DNA of 32,000 nucleotides, taken from Candidatus Pelagibacter ubique HTCC1062 (GTDB taxonomy: Bacteria; Pseudomonadota; Alphaproteobacteria; Pelagibacterales; Pelagibacteraceae). Position numbers and translations under genes: made by a program. Below the pieces are notes generated by a model. The model saw only the letters and a program-made list of their open reading frames with translations. It was not told the origin of the DNA and searched no databases. This document shows, piece by piece, positions 19,946 through 29,910 of the stretch (positions within the stretch are counted from its first letter, which is position 1; each line of letters opens with the position of its first letter). The stretch covers positions 120,001 to 152,000 of the forward strand of contig NC_007205.1 of NCBI RefSeq assembly GCF_000012345.1. The letters are read 5' to 3'.

Positions 19946-20070
19946 TATATTGATCTATCAAAAACACCCGTATTATAAAGTGTAAAAAAAAACAGAAATA
20001 TCATAAATCCTATTATTGCTACTGCTGTTAAAATATTTTTTCGCTTAGTTTTTTTGTCTGGTATCATCAT
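19945..20070 (-). CDS. Small single-TM membrane protein (41 aa), not in the supplied ORF track
   Basis: My manual translation is MMIPDKKTKRKNILTAVAIIGFMIFLFFFTLYNTGVFDRSI. Its ATG overlaps the ctaB TGA (ATGA, 20067-20070) and its TAG shares a G with the ctaG GTG start (19943-19947). It fills what would otherwise be a 121-nt gap in a cluster whose other gaps are at most 29 nt. Confidence 0.5.
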   Translation of the reverse strand: MMIPDKKTKRKNILTAVAIIGFMIFLFFFTLYNTGVFDRSI

Positions 20071-24243: not shown

Positions 24244-24906
24244 ATGAAAAATATTAAAGCAATAATTTTTGATGCATATGGCACTTTATTTGATGTCAAT
24301 TCAGCAGCAGAAAAATGTAAAGATAAAATTGGTGATAAGTGGGAAGGTTTTGCAAATTACTGGCGAACTACTCAATTAGAATACACTTGGCTCAGAAGTC
24401 TAATGAATAGACATAAAGACTTTTGGCAGGTGACAGAAGATAGTTTGGATAAATCTATGAAGGCTTACGAAATAGATTTATCAATGAAAAATGAATTATT
24501 AAATCTTTATAAGGTGCTCTCACCTTTTCCTGAAGTACCTGAAATTTTAAAAAGATTAAAAGAAAAAAATTATAAATTAGGTATTCTTTCAAATGGAACA
24601 CCCTCACTTCTTGATGAATTAGTTAAGAGTAATAATTTAGATAATATATTTGATGATATTTTTTCAATTGAAGAAGTTGGAATTTATAAACCAGACTCAA
24701 AAGTTTATGACATGCCAATTAAAAAATACAAAATACAAAAAGAAGAAGTCGCATTTTTAAGTGCTAATACTTGGGATGTTTCTGGTGGTGGAAATTATGG
24801 TTACAATTCTATTTGGGTAAACAGAAATAATAATATTTTTGATAACCTTGATTATAAACCTGAAGATGAGGTTAAGAACTTAAAACAATTGCTTGATATT
24901 ATCTAA
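24244..24906 (+). CDS. Type II haloacid dehalogenase (L-2-haloacid dehalogenase-like HAD hydrolase)
   Basis: 220 aa. Nucleophile motif IIFDAYGTLFD, then LSNG, YKPD and SANTWDVSGG motifs in HAD order. The DAYGTL plus cap pattern is typical of L-2-haloacid dehalogenases. Confidence 0.8.
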   Translation: MKNIKAIIFDAYGTLFDVNSAAEKCKDKIGDKWEGFANYWRTTQLEYTWLRSLMNRHKDFWQVTEDSLDKSMKAYEIDLSMKNELLNLYKVLSPFPEVPEILKRLKEKNYKLGILSNGTPSLLDELVKSNNLDNIFDDIFSIEEVGIYKPDSKVYDMPIKKYKIQKEEVAFLSANTWDVSGGGNYGYNSIWVNRNNNIFDNLDYKPEDEVKNLKQLLDII

Positions 24907-25258
24907 TTCTATTTTCTTCAAAATTCTTATTTAGTTTTACTGAAATAGTTCGAGTATTTCTTTTATTCCACTCTGAAAAGGATCTTAAGATAGGCATAAC
25001 CGAAAGCCCAAATTCTGTAAGTGAATACTCAACTTTTGGGGGCATTATTCGAATTACTTTTCTATTAATTATTCCATCTCCTTCTAGTTCCTTAAGCTGC
25101 TTGGATAACATTTGTTGTGTAATGGTTTTTAATCCTTTTTTGAGCTCACCAAATCTAATTTTTTTACTTTGCAGCAAACTAAACAAAATTCTAATTTTCC
25201 ATTTACCTCCAAGAAAGTAAACGGCTCTTTCAGCTGGACAATCTATTAAATTTTTCAT
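24899..25258 (-). CDS. HxlR-family winged-helix transcriptional regulator
   Basis: 119 aa. CPAERAVYFLGGKWKIRILFSL N-terminus, recognition-helix region ITQQMLSKQLKELEGDGII and the wing PPKVEYSLTEFG. Confidence 0.9.
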   Translation of the reverse strand: MKNLIDCPAERAVYFLGGKWKIRILFSLLQSKKIRFGELKKGLKTITQQMLSKQLKELEGDGIINRKVIRIMPPKVEYSLTEFGLSVMPILRSFSEWNKRNTRTISVKLNKNFEENRIR

Positions 25259-25352
25259 GGTATGTTTTTGTATACTAGTATGTTTACTTTGCGTTATTGC
25301 TTTATTAATACCAAAGCACTAAATAGAAGTCAAATAAATTGAAAGGATCAAT
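25259..25352. promoter_or_regulatory. Divergent promoter/operator region between the HxlR-type regulator and the CDGSH gene
   Basis: Perfect 10-bp palindrome ATACTAGTAT at 25272-25281. Direct repeat GTATGTTT at 25260-25267 and 25278-25285. Sigma70-like TTGCTT (25297-25302), 17-nt spacer, TAAATA (25320-25325). AAAGGA ribosome-binding site at 25342-25347. At 94 nt this is one of the longest spacers in the window. Confidence 0.4.
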
Positions 25353-25589
25353 ATGACTAAAGGACAAAACGCAGGTAACGGACCAATTGCAGTAGATGTA
25401 GAGAAAGATAAATCTTACTACTGGTGTTCATGTGGAAAGAGTTCAAAGCAACCATTTTGTGATGGATCTCATCAAGGTTCAGAATTCACTCCTCTGGCTT
25501 ACAAAGCAGAAGAAACAAAAAAAGTATTTTTTTGTGCTTGTAAACAAACTAACAACCAGCCTCTTTGCGATGGTTCACACAGTAAGTAA
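25353..25589 (+). CDS. CDGSH-type iron-sulfur protein with two [2Fe-2S] motifs (mitoNEET/Miner-like)
   Basis: 78 aa. CSCGKSSKQPFCDGSH and CACKQTNNQPLCDGSH both fit C-x-C-x2-(S/T)-x3-P-x-C-D-G-S-H. Confidence 0.9.
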   Translation: MTKGQNAGNGPIAVDVEKDKSYYWCSCGKSSKQPFCDGSHQGSEFTPLAYKAEETKKVFFCACKQTNNQPLCDGSHSK

Positions 25590-25999
25590 TGATTAAAGCA
25601 AGTAAAAGAACTAAAAATATGAACAATATCTTAGATCTGACTGGTAGAATACTTATCTCTCTAATTTTTTTGTTAAGTGGAATTAATAAAATTGGAAACT
25701 ATGAAGGAACAGTTGGTTGGATGGAGTCTTTAGGTGTGCCTGGCATTTTTTTAATACCAGCTATCATACTTGAGATAGGTGCACCGATATTAATTATGAT
25801 TGGATATAAAGTAAAAGTTTCAGCAGCTTTATTAAGTATATTTTGTATCGCCACAGCGGTTATTTTTCATAATAATCTTTCTGATCAAATGCAGTTTATA
25901 TCTTTTATGAAAAATATTGCTCTTGCTGGGGGTTTTTTATTCTTAGTTGTTAATGAAACAAAAGATTTCAGTCTAGATAAAAAATTAAATAATCGTTAA
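25589..25999 (+). CDS. DoxX-family integral membrane protein
   Basis: 136 aa with 4 TM segments. The pattern LTGRILISLIFLLSGINKI...FHN...NIALAGGFL is typical of DoxX/DoxD-like proteins. The start overlaps the CDGSH stop (TAATG, 25587-25591). Confidence 0.85.
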   Translation: MIKASKRTKNMNNILDLTGRILISLIFLLSGINKIGNYEGTVGWMESLGVPGIFLIPAIILEIGAPILIMIGYKVKVSAALLSIFCIATAVIFHNNLSDQMQFISFMKNIALAGGFLFLVVNETKDFSLDKKLNNR

Positions 26000-26010
26000 T
26001 TAACTAAATA

Positions 26011-26047
26011 TATAAGTGTCTTGATGCTTTAAATTAAGACACTTATA
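26011..26047 (+). terminator. Perfect 12-bp inverted repeat (13-nt loop): candidate terminator, attenuator or processing hairpin between doxX and the CDGSH::GltS-like gene
   Basis: TATAAGTGTCTT (26011-26022) and AAGACACTTATA (26036-26047), 12 nt after the DoxX stop. It is followed by AAAAATT rather than a T-tract, so it is not a canonical intrinsic terminator on the plus strand. Confidence 0.35.
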
Positions 26048-26095
26048 AAAATTACATATTATTTTAAGATTTAATTTATTAGAGTAAGGGTATTA

Positions 26096-27634
26096 ATGGA
26101 CAAGCCAACTATAGCAGATAACAAACCTAAAAAAGTAGAACTAGTACAAAATGAAGAATACATGTTTTGTACTTGTGGAAAATCTAAAAACCAACCATTT
26201 TGTGATTGGTCTCATGCTGGTACTTCATTTGAGCCTATAAATTTTAAAGCTGAAGAAACTGGTGATGCTTATCTTTGTATGTGTAAACATAGTAGTACCA
26301 AACCTTATTGTGACGGTACGCATAAAAATTTTACCTCTGATCAAATTAATAAATCAGAAGAAGTTTCAGGCACTAATGAAACAAAGAGTACAGAAGAAGA
26401 GCCACATCTTGCATACATTCATGAGCTTGCAAAAAATGGCTTAACAAAACTTGGTCATCATGGAGAAATGGGAGCAATGGGTGTTCCCTCAAAAGACTTG
26501 CCAAAGTGGGAAGATATTCAAATACTTACAGCCCAACTAGCAAAAAAACCTCTTCTAGATAATGATAAAGTTGAGACAGATATAATTATAGGTAAAAACT
26601 CAAATAAACCTCTAACGTTAAAGATTCCAATTTTTGTATCTGACATGAGCTTTGGTGCGCTATCAGAGGAGGCAAAAATTGCTCTAGCAAAAGGTGCTGA
26701 GGGAGCTGGTACAGGAATTTGCTCCGGAGAAGGTGGAATGCTTTTAGAAGAGCAAAAAAATAATTCAAAGTATTTTTATGAACTTGCTTCTGCTAAATTT
26801 GGTTATTCAGAAGATAAGTTAAAAAATATTCAAGCTTTTCATTTTAAAGGTGGTCAAGCTGCAAAAACTGGAACAGGTGGACATTTACCAGGGAACAAAG
26901 TTAAAGGTAAAATATCTGAGGTAAGACAAATTCCAGAAGGTGAAGATGCTATCTCCCCTTCTACTTTCAAAGACCTGACAACAGTTGATGATTTTTTAAA
27001 ATTCTCAAACAGAGTTAGAGAGTTAACTGGTGGTATTCCAATAGGATTTAAATTATCTGCTCAACATATAGAAGATGACATTGAATTTGCCGTAAGTGCT
27101 AGTGCTGATTATATTATTCTTGATGGGCGTGGTGGTGGAACTGGGGCTGCTCCTTTAATATTTAGAGATAATATTTCTGTTCCCACAATTCCAGCCTTAG
27201 CAAGAGCTAGAAATTATTTAGATAAAAAAGGTTATGACCATGTATCATTAATTGTAACAGGTGGATTAAGAACTTCTGCAGATTTTGTAAAAGCACTTGC
27301 TCTTGGAGCAGATGGTATTGCAATCTCTAACTCAGCCATGCAAGCAATAGGATGCGTTGGTGCTAGAATGTGTAATACAAATAATTGCCCCGCTGGTATT
27401 GCCACTCAAAGACCAGAACTTAGAAAAAAATTAAATATTGACGAATCTTCTGCAAGATTAACTAGATTTTTTAATGCATCTGTAGATCTAATGAAGATAT
27501 TAGCAAGAGCATGCGGACATGATCATCTTAATAAACTTTCTATAAATGATTTAACAACTTGGAAGAAGGAAATGAGCGAACTATCTGGTGTGTCATTTGG
27601 TGGAATTATAAATAATAAGCAAAACAATAAATAG
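26096..27634 (+). CDS. Fusion protein: N-terminal double-CDGSH [2Fe-2S] module plus glutamate-synthase-type FMN/Fe-S domain (GltB central-domain-like, no amidotransferase domain)
   Basis: 512 aa. CTCGKSKNQPFCDWSH and CMCKHSSTKPYCDGTH in aa 25-76, then an acidic linker. The rest carries GltS FMN-domain motifs: GQAAKTGTGGHLPGNKV, LDGRGGGTGAAP, TGGLRTSADFVKALALGADGI, and the Fe-S motif C-x5-C-x4-CP (CVGARMCNTNNCP). Confidence 0.85.
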   Translation: MDKPTIADNKPKKVELVQNEEYMFCTCGKSKNQPFCDWSHAGTSFEPINFKAEETGDAYLCMCKHSSTKPYCDGTHKNFTSDQINKSEEVSGTNETKSTEEEPHLAYIHELAKNGLTKLGHHGEMGAMGVPSKDLPKWEDIQILTAQLAKKPLLDNDKVETDIIIGKNSNKPLTLKIPIFVSDMSFGALSEEAKIALAKGAEGAGTGICSGEGGMLLEEQKNNSKYFYELASAKFGYSEDKLKNIQAFHFKGGQAAKTGTGGHLPGNKVKGKISEVRQIPEGEDAISPSTFKDLTTVDDFLKFSNRVRELTGGIPIGFKLSAQHIEDDIEFAVSASADYIILDGRGGGTGAAPLIFRDNISVPTIPALARARNYLDKKGYDHVSLIVTGGLRTSADFVKALALGADGIAISNSAMQAIGCVGARMCNTNNCPAGIATQRPELRKKLNIDESSARLTRFFNASVDLMKILARACGHDHLNKLSINDLTTWKKEMSELSGVSFGGIINNKQNNK

Positions 27635-27643
27635 AGGATAGAA

Positions 27644-28483
27644 ATGAGTAATATTGAAGTAGAAAAAATTATAGAACCAGTTGCAGCGTCAGATGGTGCT
27701 GGTGTTAAATTAAAAAGAAGTATTGGCACTCACCTTATTGATTACCACGATCCCTTTTTAATGTTGGATGAATTTGGTTCTGAAAATAAAGATGATTACA
27801 TTGGTGGTTTCCCTCCTCATCCTCACAGAGGAATTGAAACAGTAACATATATGCTTGCTGGCGACTTTGAACATAAAGACAGTACAGGTGGCGAAGGAAT
27901 AATGACTGCTGGAGATGTTCAGTGGATGAAAACTGGAAGTGGTATCATTCATTCAGAAATGCCTGCAATGAAAGAAGGTAAGCTTCATGGATTTCAATTA
28001 TGGGTAAACATGCCTGCTAAATTGAAAATGACTAAACCTGAATATATTTATATTGATGCAGATAAAATGAGCACTCATAAAGATGATGATAAAACTGTCA
28101 AAGTGATTGCTGGAAAATTTCAAGATGCAGAAGGACCTGTTAAAGGTCACAATGTTGAACCTGTTTATTTTGATGTAGAGCTTGAAAAAGGAAAAGAATT
28201 TAATTTTGATCTTCCCTCAACTCACAATTCATTAATATATTTAGTTGAGGGTGAAATTAAAGTTGGCAATCAAGATCATGATGCCGTTAAAGATTCTACT
28301 TTAATTATTCTAACTAGAGGTGAAAAATTAAAAGTATCTAGCTTAACTAAAGCCAAGTTTTTATTGATATCTGGAAAGCCAATTGGTGAGCCTATTGCTA
28401 GAGGGGGTCCATTTGTAATGAATACTAAAGCAGAGATCTTGCAAGCAGTTCAAGATTATCATAATGATACATTTGTAAAATAA
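27644..28483 (+). CDS. Pirin-family bicupin protein
   Basis: 279 aa. The metal-binding motif FPPHPHRGIETVTYMLAG..EHKDS.G, then IHSE and FQLWVN, is typical of pirins. Confidence 0.9.
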   Translation: MSNIEVEKIIEPVAASDGAGVKLKRSIGTHLIDYHDPFLMLDEFGSENKDDYIGGFPPHPHRGIETVTYMLAGDFEHKDSTGGEGIMTAGDVQWMKTGSGIIHSEMPAMKEGKLHGFQLWVNMPAKLKMTKPEYIYIDADKMSTHKDDDKTVKVIAGKFQDAEGPVKGHNVEPVYFDVELEKGKEFNFDLPSTHNSLIYLVEGEIKVGNQDHDAVKDSTLIILTRGEKLKVSSLTKAKFLLISGKPIGEPIARGGPFVMNTKAEILQAVQDYHNDTFVK

Positions 28484-29457
28484 TGAAAACTATTAAAATA
28501 GAAAGATTTGGTGGTCCTGAAGTCTTAGAAGTTAAAGATATTGAAATTGGTAAACCAGGTCCAAAAGAAGTTGTGATAAAAAATTTATCAATTGGACTTA
28601 ACTATATTGACGTTTATCACCGAACAGGTTTGTATCCTATTCCTCTTCCAAGTGGAATTGGCCTAGAGGCATGTGGAATAATTGAAGAAGTTGGTTCAGA
28701 AGTTGATCTGTTTAAAGTTGGAGATAGAGTGGCTCACTCTTCAATGCCAATTGGAAGTTATTCAGAAAAACAATTGTTTCCTCAAGAAAAATTAGTTTTA
28801 GTTCCAGAGGGTATCTCTGATGAAATAGCATCTTGTATTATGCTTAAAGGGATTACTGCTGAATATTTATTACACAGAGCTTATCCAATTAAAAAAGGTG
28901 ACAAAGTATTATACCACGCAGCAGCTGGTGGTGTTGGCCAAATATTATGCCAGTGGGCTAATGCATTAGGAGCTGAAGTTATTGGAACTGTTGGCTCTAA
29001 AGAAAAAGAAGCTATTGCTAAAAAAAATGGTTGTCATCATGTAATAAATTATACTGATACAAACTTTGTTGAAGAGGTGGAAAAAATTGCAGGTAAAAAT
29101 GGAGTTGATGTTGTCTATGATGGTGTTGGTATTAAAACATTCGATGGATCAATTGAAACCTTAAAGGTTAGAGGTATGATGGTCGCTTTTGGTAACGCAT
29201 CAGGTTACGTTGATACGATAGATGTTAAAAAACATATTAATGCAAAAGGATTATTTTTTACTCGTCCTTCTATTGCACATTATACAATGACAAGGGAAGA
29301 ATTAGTTGAGTCAGCTAAAAAAGTTTTTGATGCAATTTTGTCTGGAAAATTTAAAGTTGAAATTTCAAAAAAATACTCACTTGATGATGCTAAAAAAGCT
29401 CATGAAGAATTAGAAGCAAGACTATTAACCGGTCCTGCAGTTATTATTCCTAATTAA
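28483..29457 (+). CDS. qor: NADPH:quinone oxidoreductase (zeta-crystallin/Qor, MDR superfamily)
   Basis: 324 aa. GLNYIDVYHRTGLYP, EACGIIEEVGS and the cofactor loop HAAAGGVGQ, with no zinc ligand pattern. TAATG overlap with the pirin stop. Confidence 0.88.
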   Translation: MKTIKIERFGGPEVLEVKDIEIGKPGPKEVVIKNLSIGLNYIDVYHRTGLYPIPLPSGIGLEACGIIEEVGSEVDLFKVGDRVAHSSMPIGSYSEKQLFPQEKLVLVPEGISDEIASCIMLKGITAEYLLHRAYPIKKGDKVLYHAAAGGVGQILCQWANALGAEVIGTVGSKEKEAIAKKNGCHHVINYTDTNFVEEVEKIAGKNGVDVVYDGVGIKTFDGSIETLKVRGMMVAFGNASGYVDTIDVKKHINAKGLFFTRPSIAHYTMTREELVESAKKVFDAILSGKFKVEISKKYSLDDAKKAHEELEARLLTGPAVIIPN

Positions 29458-29858
29458 TCTAAATTAACATCCATATCAGACATATGCAATTTTAATGCAT
29501 TTGTTGATACTTGAATTTCTCTCATAAAAACAACAATTGAAATCATCATCGATAAACAACAAGATCCAAAGATTAATCTTGCAGCAAAAATTTCATTCAA
29601 ATAAAGGGCAAACACAGTCAACATATTAAATAAGAAACCAAATGCAGCAAACATAATAGTCCATTTTAAAAGAACAATTCTTCCACTTAAATTTATAAAC
29701 TGTTTTTTCCACTCAGGAGGAATATGATTTTCATACACATGTTCATCATGAAGCTGCCTAATAAGCTTGCTCAAAGAATGAAATCTGTTGCTATATACGC
29801 TCATCAATAAAGGAATGGCCGGAAACATCAATGCTGTAACTGTGTAATCTATATTCAT
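29454..29858 (-). CDS. Small 3-TM membrane protein, DUF2721-like
   Basis: 134 aa. An N-terminal TM is followed by NRFHSLSKLIRQLHDE and two more TM segments. The resemblance to DUF2721 is from memory only. Confidence 0.5.
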   Translation of the reverse strand: MNIDYTVTALMFPAIPLLMSVYSNRFHSLSKLIRQLHDEHVYENHIPPEWKKQFINLSGRIVLLKWTIMFAAFGFLFNMLTVFALYLNEIFAARLIFGSCCLSMMISIVVFMREIQVSTNALKLHMSDMDVNLD

Positions 29859-29910
29859 ACGAATCAGTTTGATTATGAAACTAGCCTTTGTTATTTACAA
29901 GTAAATTATT

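Follow-up and report, generated by a model that had tools for sequence, protein, structure and literature searches.

A modular redox locus of Candidatus Pelagibacter ubique HTCC1062, a probable quinone-type stress operon

Introduction

What unites a small CDGSH iron-sulfur protein, a DoxX membrane protein, a CDGSH::glutamate-synthase fusion, a pirin and a quinone oxidoreductase (Qor) behind a single divergent HxlR-type regulator? The question is raised by a locus of Candidatus Pelagibacter ubique HTCC1062, a member of the SAR11 clade, in a 32,000-nucleotide stretch of contig NC_007205.1 (the window), where six open reading frames (ORFs) read across positions 24899-29457. An earlier note on this DNA, made from the letters alone, had joined the five co-oriented genes into one regulated unit for electron transfer or electrophile handling, with NADPH feeding Qor and quinone, then DoxX, CDGSH and finally an enzyme carrying flavin mononucleotide (FMN) and Fe-S centers. 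Its ORF positions match ours exactly for all six genes, and its domain assignments agree with Pfam and NCBI model searches. Our analysis leads to a related but different answer. We consider it probable, with moderate confidence, that the locus is an oxidant/electrophile (quinone-type) stress operon under a thiol-sensing MarR/DUF24 regulator. The operon is modular and polymorphic, not a five-step chain, and its general type is already known. What is new is the presence of CDGSH proteins inside such a regulon, the recurring pairing of CDGSH with pirin, and the dynamics of an exchanged gene cassette.

Results

A predicted one-Cys MarR/DUF24 regulator

The divergent regulator matches PF01638 with 100.8 bits against a cut-off of 20.8, and its closest relatives in the PDB are HypR/YybR (8e-25), followed by HxlR, YdzF, YodB and Staphylococcus aureus QsrR. 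Members of the MarR/DUF24 family sense diamide, quinones, HOCl and aldehydes through a conserved N-terminal cysteine (PMC3351151). The reactive cysteine conserved at the N-terminus of helix alpha1 is present here as Cys7, the only cysteine of the protein (codon 25238-25240), which aligns with HypR Cys14 (GCPVE; the C14S structure reads SP) and with HxlR Cys11. The two-Cys reference types add a further residue or pair, C49 in HypR and C101/C108 in YodB. Because the position of HypR Cys49 is occupied by Leu43, and no second cysteine is available for an intersubunit disulfide, this regulator must be of the one-Cys type. An assignment to HxlR sensu stricto, the formaldehyde-responsive activator of hxlAB, was rejected: the position of HxlR Lys13, which pairs with Cys11 for the methylene bridge, is Ala9 and no hxlAB-type genes are adjacent, and the absence of that lysine at +2 argues that the protein is not a formaldehyde sensor. 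Overall, the alignments place it as a one-Cys member of the thiol-sensing MarR/DUF24 family, most similar to HypR.

Two published HTCC1062 locus tags, SAR11_0134 for cox1 and SAR11_0142 for pirin, fit the full gene arrangement and so identify the regulator as SAR11_0138. Expression of SAR11_0138 is 2.1x higher in the light than in the dark.

A conserved operator-like element in the divergent spacer

The spacer between the regulator and the small CDGSH gene contains a candidate operator, in which an outer inverted repeat overlaps a palindrome (Table 1). The sequence GGTATGnTTTTnTATACTAGTATG is common to 53 distinct SAR11 spacers at ≥90%, and the element has a single exact match within the window. 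It abuts the start codon of the regulator and lies ~55-65 nt upstream of the predicted start site of the operon. Its outer half-sites and their spacing agree with the footprinted HypR operator GTATCAAAATTGATAC. That operator, too, sits upstream of the promoter of its target and within the leader of its own regulator gene (PMC3351151). In most SAR11 loci that have no HxlR gene, the element is gone as well. A second operator-like site at 26277-26298, with two mismatches, was discarded as being at chance level, since at least 2 hits occur in 9 of 100 shuffles. The SAR11-type motif was not found in the spacer of a cyanobacterial HxlR-CDGSH locus (L181; loci sampled here carry L numbers), so the operator sequence is not confirmed across phyla.

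Alignment of the spacers also reveals a conserved TTGc-N17-TAnnTA pair and a conserved GAAAGG ribosome-binding site. A generic promoter scan of the window performed at chance (34 found vs 34.5 expected), and the promoter was therefore assigned from conservation. That the divergent spacer is a control region, as the earlier note had supposed, is supported by a strongly conserved operator-like element together with a promoter-like pair. The unusual length of this spacer (94 nt) and of the one between DoxX and the fusion (96 nt) is likewise borne out: they rank 3rd and 2nd among the gaps of a window that is ~98% coding and has a median intergenic gap of 0. The sole longer gap, between ctaG and ctaB of the cox operon, contains a called 41-aa ORF (19946-20066), which is called in all related contigs and has zero Pfam matches. 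With permissive thresholds, Rfam gave no match over 24700-29900; neither spacer corresponds to a known riboswitch or small RNA.

A constant core of CDGSH, pirin and Qor

To describe gene content across the clade, we used a metagenome scan anchored on the small CDGSH gene, in which 84 SAR11-type loci were typed by tblastn; 71 are informative downstream and 76 upstream. The small CDGSH gene, as the anchor, is in every sampled locus. The arrangement of the window, CDGSH-DoxX-fusion-pirin, is found in 10 of the 71, and CDGSH-DoxX-pirin in 17. Another 25 have CDGSH, a sequence-divergent SAR11 paralog of 135-136 aa that passes the DoxX model at 29-30 bits, and pirin. CDGSH lies directly 5' of pirin in 17 loci, and two have some other arrangement. 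Pirin thus follows CDGSH or DoxX in 69/71 loci, and Qor is found 3' of pirin in every locus whose contig extends that far. Of the 71 loci, 61 have CDGSH-pirin-Qor but not the fusion, and in 19 no DoxX-type gene turned up. From these counts, the constant core is CDGSH-(DoxX-type)-pirin-Qor and the fusion is accessory. Upstream, the regulator is present in 63/76 loci. The idea of five genes inherited as one unit is contradicted by the rarity of the fusion, by the loci without a DoxX-type gene, and by the loss of the regulator from at least 10 of 76.

Among the proteins of the core, the 78-aa protein has two Cys3His CDGSH motifs in ~80 aa, which makes it a type 6 CISD protein. Among SAR11 homologs of 76-95% identity, its C25, C27, C36, H40, C72 and H76 are invariant, and C61 and C63 are at least 90% conserved. 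The DoxX protein matches PF07681 with 69.6 bits (cut-off 23.6). Alignments with its homologs in fusion-less loci begin only at residue 10-11, and an alternative start at the ATG at 25619 is therefore possible; the start is ambiguous, and the genes are tightly linked with either one. Pirin matches human pirin at E 2e-54, has the two-cupin architecture with N- and C-terminal domains, and keeps the 3His-1Glu metal site, its HPH...HSE aligning with HPH...HAE of the human protein. In one contig that is otherwise identical to the window (L082, 11549-12543), pirin is interrupted: residues 1-86 are followed by a restart at 69, with ~100 extra bases. Either an internal duplication or an artefact of assembly could explain this split gene.

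Qor, an MDR-family enzyme, scores just above the cut-off of the NADPH:quinone reductase model (Table 1), and its PDB matches are 3jyl (8e-90), 1qor (2e-85) and the 2-haloacrylate reductase 1wly (1e-85). Across SAR11, the alleles in the Qor position fall into two classes, with 83-98% and 52-63% identity to the window protein (loci L108, L114, L115, L121, L122, L139-L141, L147, L150, L158, L164 and L166). Because the adjacent pirin and DUF2721 genes remain 80-90% identical, Qor appears to have been replaced in situ.

The fusion as a probable self-contained Fe-S flavoprotein

The fusion protein consists of an N-terminal tandem CDGSH region and a glutamate-synthase FMN/[3Fe-4S] domain (PF01645 Glu_synthase, 2.7e-94, aa 149-474), the layout of a type 5 CISD protein. 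Its first motif reads CDWSH in all SAR11 fusions (codon 38, ~26207-26209), with the cluster ligands intact; Gly38 is at least 90% conserved in the wider fusion family. The motif C420-x5-C426-x4-C431-P is invariant in the fusion-family alignment, as are E212, Q254, K257 and R277, which align with E903, Q969, K972 and R992 of Synechocystis glutamate synthase (GltS). We take these residues to have 2-oxoglutarate-binding (synthase-site) roles.

The amidotransferase, central and C-terminal domains of GltS are missing, and the protein reaches 144 bits against an NF008730 cut-off of 1047. With the FMN domain alone present, it is not a full GltS large subunit. The JGI label carried by some homologs, "methylamine-glutamate N-methyltransferase subunit C" (N-methylglutamate synthase subunit C), was also set aside; neither the window nor the sampled loci have mgsA or mgsB neighbors, and the label is an annotation transfer. 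The simplest reading of the retained residues is a self-contained wire of two CDGSH clusters, a [3Fe-4S] cluster and FMN, which would act on a 2-oxoacid or amino-acid-like substrate.

DoxX, a hairpin spacer and the fusion form an exchanged cassette

Comparison of the window with four full-architecture SAR11 lineages delimits an accessory block of ~2.1 kb that runs from the 3' end of CDGSH through DoxX and the hairpin spacer to the end of the fusion. DoxX is 96-97% identical at the nucleotide level in all four lineages. In three of them, identity is 95-99% for the spacer and 95-96% for the fusion. The corresponding values in the fourth lineage (L113) are 88.5% and 91.6%, and the block in this lineage ranges over 88-96%. 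The flanks are at 64-85%, with the regulator at 77-79%, pirin at 78-83%, Qor at 64-80% and ubiA at 66-69%. Identity falls sharply at the fusion stop codon, with the drop at 27640, and the left edge is softer, within the 3' end of CDGSH. At four-fold degenerate sites, DoxX and the fusion differ at 10-13% (24% for the L113 fusion) and the flanks at 36-72%. Such low four-fold divergence points to recent shared ancestry, beyond constraint alone.

DoxX is 96-100% identical in cassette loci and 68-88% in fusion-less loci. A protein search with the fusion returns one cluster at 98% and then drops to 79% (SAR324, Bacteriovoracaceae and others), and a search with the small CDGSH protein grades smoothly from 95% to 76%. 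Locus L104 has pirin and Qor 97% identical to those of the window and lacks both DoxX and the fusion. Composition gave no signal of foreign origin for the cassette (34.8% GC in the fusion, 33-34% in pirin and Qor, 29.4% in the window). Overall, the cassette is polymorphic and, judging from these identities, has recombined recently among SAR11 lineages.

The perfect 12-bp hairpin that had been noted between DoxX and the fusion is present and extends to 15 pairs with one G.T. A 106-nt segment comprising the spacer and a few flanking bases (25995-26100) folds with a dG of -22.8 kcal/mol (z = -3.7), and none of 200 shuffles folds as well. The hairpin core GTGTCTTrAT/ATTAAGACAC is kept in 11/11 cassette spacers, the sole change being G.U to A-U. 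A promoter-like TTAAGA-N17-TATTAT at 26034-26062 overlaps the 3' arm. A terminator reading was rejected, as the hairpin was not called as one and neither strand carries a T-run. Fusion-less loci lack the hairpin spacer. There, the pirin start usually shares bases with the DoxX stop or follows it closely (TAATG or TAAATG; a gap of 2-10 nt, and of 39 nt in two loci). Because it is found only alongside the cassette, the hairpin spacer arrived with the ~2.1-kb mobile block. Of the two long spacers once taken together as signs of regulation, then, the divergent one probably keeps that role, and the hairpin spacer is part of the cassette and not of native operon regulation.

Recurring redox partners beyond SAR11

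The fusion is highly conserved (63-79% identity) and widespread; in species-representative genomes from many phyla, at least 588 stretches match it. We counted its partners within 3 kb at 80 diverse loci. A LysR regulator is nearby in 15/80, a pirin on the same strand in at least 11-13/80, and a YqjG-type glutathionyl-hydroquinone reductase in 8/80. Cytochrome b561, DoxX and small CDGSH genes each occur in 4/80, a Qor-like gene in 3/80 and HxlR in 1-2/80. The seven redox partner families considered (pirin, YqjG-type GST, nitroreductase, cytochrome b561, DoxX, small CDGSH and Qor-like) share the strand of the fusion, one Qor-like gene excepted. In 59/80 loci, none of them lies within 3 kb, and close relatives of the fusion stand alone beside a MarR or LysR gene.

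Where partners are present, they follow a consistent theme. Locus L068 (Mariprofundus) reads CDGSH-nitroreductase-YqjG-fusion-pirin; L061 reads YqjG-CDGSH-cytochrome b561-YceI-...-fusion-nitroreductase-pirin-MerR; and in L179, a minus-strand LysR gene is divergent from cytochrome b561-YceI-CDGSH-nitroreductase-OYE-YqjG-type GST-pirin. The cyanobacterial locus L181, with a minus-strand HxlR gene divergent from CDGSH-pirin, is a miniature of the SAR11 core. Immediately upstream of its CDGSH ribosome-binding site (1790-1850) are six tandem copies of GAGAACGCC. Other CDGSH contexts include ArsR-CDGSH-peroxiredoxin-OYE (L182) and a CDGSH gene after a type III polyketide synthase, a monooxygenase and a methyltransferase (L178), a cluster that we read as phenolic-lipid or alkylquinone-like. 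The association first drawn from the HTCC1062 locus holds in a wider form, with CDGSH, pirin, DoxX or cytochrome b561, and quinone/electrophile reductases recurring jointly in distant phyla. No pirin was found near the plasmid-borne small CDGSH genes of Gloeothece, Leptospira and Brevibacillus, which limits the generality of the CDGSH-pirin pairing. The L180 context described below likewise gave no sign of such a link.

Two further observations concern these families. In the deltaproteobacterial locus L180, a 539-aa Glu_synthase-domain protein without CDGSH (467-2086) lies 3 kb from a small CDGSH gene, and the two may represent the type 5 architecture in unfused form. A separate report (PMC12972064) may bear on how abundant SAR11 CDGSH genes are in cold-water contigs.

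Layout and surroundings of the locus

The locus is bracketed by the cox operon, rsmE and a haloacid dehalogenase (HAD) gene on one side and by DUF2721-ubiA-msbA-kdtA-lpxK on the other. NCBI assembly GCA_000472585.1 shows the identical gene order, as do many marine metagenome contigs, and the locus is also present in HIMB4-type SAR11. Within it, the TAATG overlaps at 25587-25591 (CDGSH and DoxX) and 28481-28485 (pirin stop and Qor start) can be read directly in the sequence, as can the 9-nt gap between the fusion and pirin.

Table 1. Features of the HTCC1062 locus, in window coordinates
Feature	Position	Strand	Basis
Type II HAD	24244-24906	+	TIGR01428, 205 bits vs cut-off 125
HxlR-family (MarR/DUF24) one-Cys regulator	24899-25258	-	PF01638, E 4e-29
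Candidate operator: GTAT-N8-ATAC (25260-25275) overlapping palindrome ATACTAGTAT (25272-25281)	25260-25281		spacer conservation
Promoter-like TTGCTT (25297-25302), 17-nt spacer, TAAATA (25320-25325); ribosome-binding site GAAAGGA (25341-25347)	25297-25347	+	conservation
78-aa tandem-CDGSH [2Fe-2S] protein, type 6 CISD	25353-25589	+	two zf-CDGSH stretches
Accessory cassette, ~2.1 kb: CDGSH 3' end, DoxX, hairpin spacer, fusion	25540-27640		identity and four-fold-site comparison
DoxX-family membrane protein, cassette allele	25589-25999	+	PF07681, 3.6e-19
Stem-loop in 96-nt spacer	26011-26047	+	15-bp stem, 7-nt loop, no U-tract after
512-aa CDGSH::glutamate-synthase fusion, type 5 CISD	26096-27634	+	zf-CDGSH x2, PF01645
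[3Fe-4S] motif C420-x5-C426-x4-C431-P in fusion	27353-27391	+	residue-for-residue match to GltS GCIMARVCHTNNCP
Pirin, iron bicupin	27644-28483	+	PF02678 + PF05726
Qor, NADPH:quinone oxidoreductase	28483-29457	+	NF008024, 349.6 bits vs 348

The HAD gene converges on the regulator with an 8-nt overlap. It is a neighbor of the operon and not a proven member. Where SAR11 loci lack HxlR, the HAD gene precedes CDGSH on the same strand, with 11-46 nt between them. The HAD/regulator junction is variable, with insertions of 0.6-1.9 kb in L095, L110, L115, L119, L139, L146, L155 and L167; the one in L095 includes an S-methyltransferase (PF02574). At the other end, a gene for a DUF2721 membrane protein (29454-29858) converges on Qor with a 4-nt overlap and is kept at this position in all SAR11 loci that reach that far.

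Discussion

Relation to known systems

The claim that no characterized pathway combines these parts is sound for the CDGSH components only, because DoxX, pirin and quinone reductases are known under DUF24 or LysR regulators (PMC3351151, PMC5031710). Thiol-sensing DUF24 proteins control quinone, nitro and flavin reductases in several bacteria (YodB/CatR, HypR, QsrR and QorR, the last acting on a quinone oxidoreductase; PMC3351151). The SAR11 locus resembles Bacillus subtilis HypR-hypO and YodB/CatR, Corynebacterium glutamicum QorR-qor and S. aureus QsrR in that its regulator belongs to the same Pfam family and has the sensing cysteine at the same aligned position. As in HypR-type systems, a small divergent regulator faces NAD(P)H/flavin and quinone oxidoreductase targets, and the GTAT-N8-ATAC inverted repeat is similar to the HypR box in sequence and position. 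It differs in that its regulator is of the one-Cys type and its putative targets add two CDGSH proteins and pirin; the host is a streamlined alphaproteobacterium, and the operator is so far a candidate.

A second parallel is the YhaJ regulon of Escherichia coli, where yqjF (DoxX), yqjG, the LysR regulator gene yhaJ and the bicupin gene yhaK are neighbors. The regulon that YhaJ drives is induced by hydroquinone, and the pirin YhhW belongs to it (PMC5031710). Both systems place DoxX, a pirin-type bicupin and a quinone or hydroquinone reductase under a local sensor of redox chemicals. In other phyla, LysR, pirin and YqjG-type genes are also the commonest neighbors of the fusion. The E. coli system differs in its LysR-type rather than DUF24 regulator, its lack of CDGSH proteins and its use of a GST rather than Qor as the reductase.

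Lin et al. (2011) defined the type 5 CISD class, one of the two aligned examples being from P. ubique, and described folds with no function or genomic context assigned (PMC3174974); Sengupta et al. (2018) also list the fusion architecture. In their terms, our 78-aa protein has the type 6 tandem architecture and the fusion is type 5, although motif 1 of the SAR11 fusion is CDWSH rather than CDGSH. The FMN domain of the fusion matches GltS alpha and ferredoxin-dependent GltS (Fd-GltS) at 1e-35 to 1e-31 and keeps the [3Fe-4S] and synthase-site residues. As in Fd-GltS, electrons would enter through an Fe-S protein; unlike GltS, the carrier would be the fused CDGSH, standing in for the ferredoxin. 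A further analogy is offered by XylT-type [2Fe-2S] ferredoxins, which reductively reactivate catechol 2,3-dioxygenase. There, too, the gene for a small [2Fe-2S] protein lies just upstream of that for a non-heme-iron oxygenase and is transcribed with it, although the folds are different (plant-type ferredoxin vs CDGSH, extradiol dioxygenase vs pirin bicupin). Our literature search turned up no work on bacteria that connects CDGSH with pirin or with DoxX.

Weighing the explanations

The counts given above bear most directly on the obligate chain from NADPH through Qor/quinone, DoxX and small CDGSH to the fusion as terminal catalyst. The genes are co-oriented and tightly spaced, every part is a redox protein, and small CDGSH, DoxX or cytochrome b561, and the fusion do occur together in L061, L065 and L038. 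The chain is nevertheless not supported as an obligate five-gene set, given the 61 loci without the fusion and the 19 without a DoxX-type gene. The DoxX-spacer-fusion block also has a separate recent history, as the near-identical L104 without the block illustrates, the fusion has no partner within 3 kb in 59 of 80 diverse genomes, and pirin, the most constant partner, is given no role; we regard such a chain as very unlikely. At the other extreme, the genes could be unrelated, with streamlining of the genome having packed them into a spot prone to recombination. This would account for the insertions between HAD and the regulator, the replaced regulator, the two Qor allele classes and the gain and loss of the cassette, and in a window so densely coding tight spacing is the norm. 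We think it very unlikely, given that CDGSH-pirin with redox partners is met again, differently ordered, in Cyanobacteriota, Zetaproteobacteria and others, that CDGSH-(DoxX)-pirin-Qor is constant across SAR11 lineages differing at 36-72% of four-fold sites, and that the control element is conserved.

Two other explanations assign the locus a different chemistry. In one, the CDGSH proteins would be labile [2Fe-2S] donors or repair factors for oxidatively damaged iron enzymes, and the operon would maintain iron cofactors rather than deal with quinones. Such a role has been proposed for mitoNEET/CISD proteins, and CDGSH clusters have been described as regulating the metabolism of iron and of reactive oxygen (PMC5859297). 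Pirin is an iron enzyme with intact ligands, the catDE genes of Bacillus subtilis are under Fur and iron control in addition to the DUF24 proteins CatR and YodB, and CDGSH neighbors include a peroxiredoxin in one context and, in another, an AhpD-like protein plus an iron uptake porin. The locus itself, however, has no Fur box or iron-uptake gene, its recurring partners are quinone/electrophile reductases (Qor, YqjG-type GST, OYE and nitroreductase), and the CDGSH of the fusion is hard-wired to [3Fe-4S]/FMN and resembles an electron wire, not a cluster donor; we judge this explanation unlikely. The other would make the Qor-like protein a 2-haloacrylate or enone reductase, working with the adjacent HAD in the detoxification of activated alkenes and organohalogens, with the regulator sensing the electrophilic substrate. 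The match of Qor to 1wly is nearly equal to its matches to quinone oxidoreductases; the HAD is a type II enzyme by TIGR01428, abuts CDGSH co-directionally in HxlR-less SAR11 loci, and has a counterpart beside CDGSH genes on a Gloeothece plasmid (L184). Yet Qor clears the cut-off of the NADPH:quinone reductase model, and its best scores are against true quinone oxidoreductases. The HAD gene is convergent with the regulator in this window, inserted genes part the two in some lineages, and CDGSH, DoxX and pirin are left without a role. The chance of this explanation being right is as slim as that of mere packing.

An oxidant/electrophile stress operon is therefore the explanation we prefer, and it preserves part of the original proposal: the candidate operator, the sensing cysteine, the light induction of the regulator and the recurring partners support a regulated redox/electrophile-handling unit, but not a single five-gene pathway. 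Several points weigh against it. Operator binding, induction by quinones and the enzyme activities are all predictions, and the promoter-like pair was called from conservation alone. The regulator is missing from at least 10 of the 76 loci informative upstream, with the HAD gene abutting CDGSH in 10, so the core can apparently run without it. In L134, the palindrome is retained beside another divergent gene, without HxlR; the replacement was judged DUF924-like by eye. The genes downstream of SAR11_0138 are not listed as light-responsive, and the expression changes are small. Pirin occurs with small CDGSH in just 4 of 12 sampled non-SAR11 contexts, which is far above chance for one or two pirin genes per genome but is not universal. 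For CDGSH, the parallel with XylT goes no further than analogy, and the fusion would be linked to quinone stress indirectly, because its substrate site looks glutamate-like and not quinone-like. On the supporting side, pirin mRNA (SAR11_0142) was 1.69x up in nitrogen-limited stationary phase, together with trxB (3.0x) and glutaredoxin (1.8x), in a study in which no mRNA change reached q ≤ 0.05.

A working model and its implications

In our model of the stress operon, Cys7 would be oxidized or alkylated by quinones, other oxidants or light-generated species, which would alter binding by the regulator and switch on both the operon and the regulator itself. Qor would use NADPH to reduce quinones or activated alkenes, and the iron center of pirin would carry out an oxidative transformation of phenolic or quinol-type compounds. 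The small CDGSH protein may serve as a one-electron [2Fe-2S] shuttle for a partner, most likely keeping the pirin iron reduced, and the DoxX-type protein may tie the system to the membrane or the quinone pool. As a self-contained Fe-S flavoenzyme, the fusion would pass electrons between its two CDGSH clusters, [3Fe-4S] and FMN, as an optional electron source or sink for the pool. Because its FMN site keeps the 2-oxoglutarate/glutamate-binding residues of glutamate synthase, it probably couples a 2-oxoacid or amino-acid redox reaction to that pool.

A bolder proposal, which we put forward tentatively and with only a modest chance of being right, is that tandem-CDGSH (CISD3-type) proteins and pirin are conserved bacterial partners, with CDGSH, as a dedicated one-electron partner, setting the redox state of the pirin iron in the response to quinones or oxidants and the type 5 fusion acting as a glutamate/2-oxoglutarate-linked Fe-S flavoenzyme, which would supply electrons to the same pool or draw them from it. 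Human homologs exist for both families, with a biochemistry that is still unresolved, and the operon link, if this proposal is true, would give each a testable biochemical role.

The DoxX-fusion cassette is a clean case of gene-specific transfer in a syntenic, streamlined genome. For SAR11, which has very few regulators, the light-induced SAR11_0138 gains a concrete candidate operator and target operon, and oxidant/quinone sensing in the ocean's most abundant heterotroph becomes directly testable. More broadly, the recurring CDGSH-pirin linkage would offer a first functional handle on two widespread, biochemically unresolved families.

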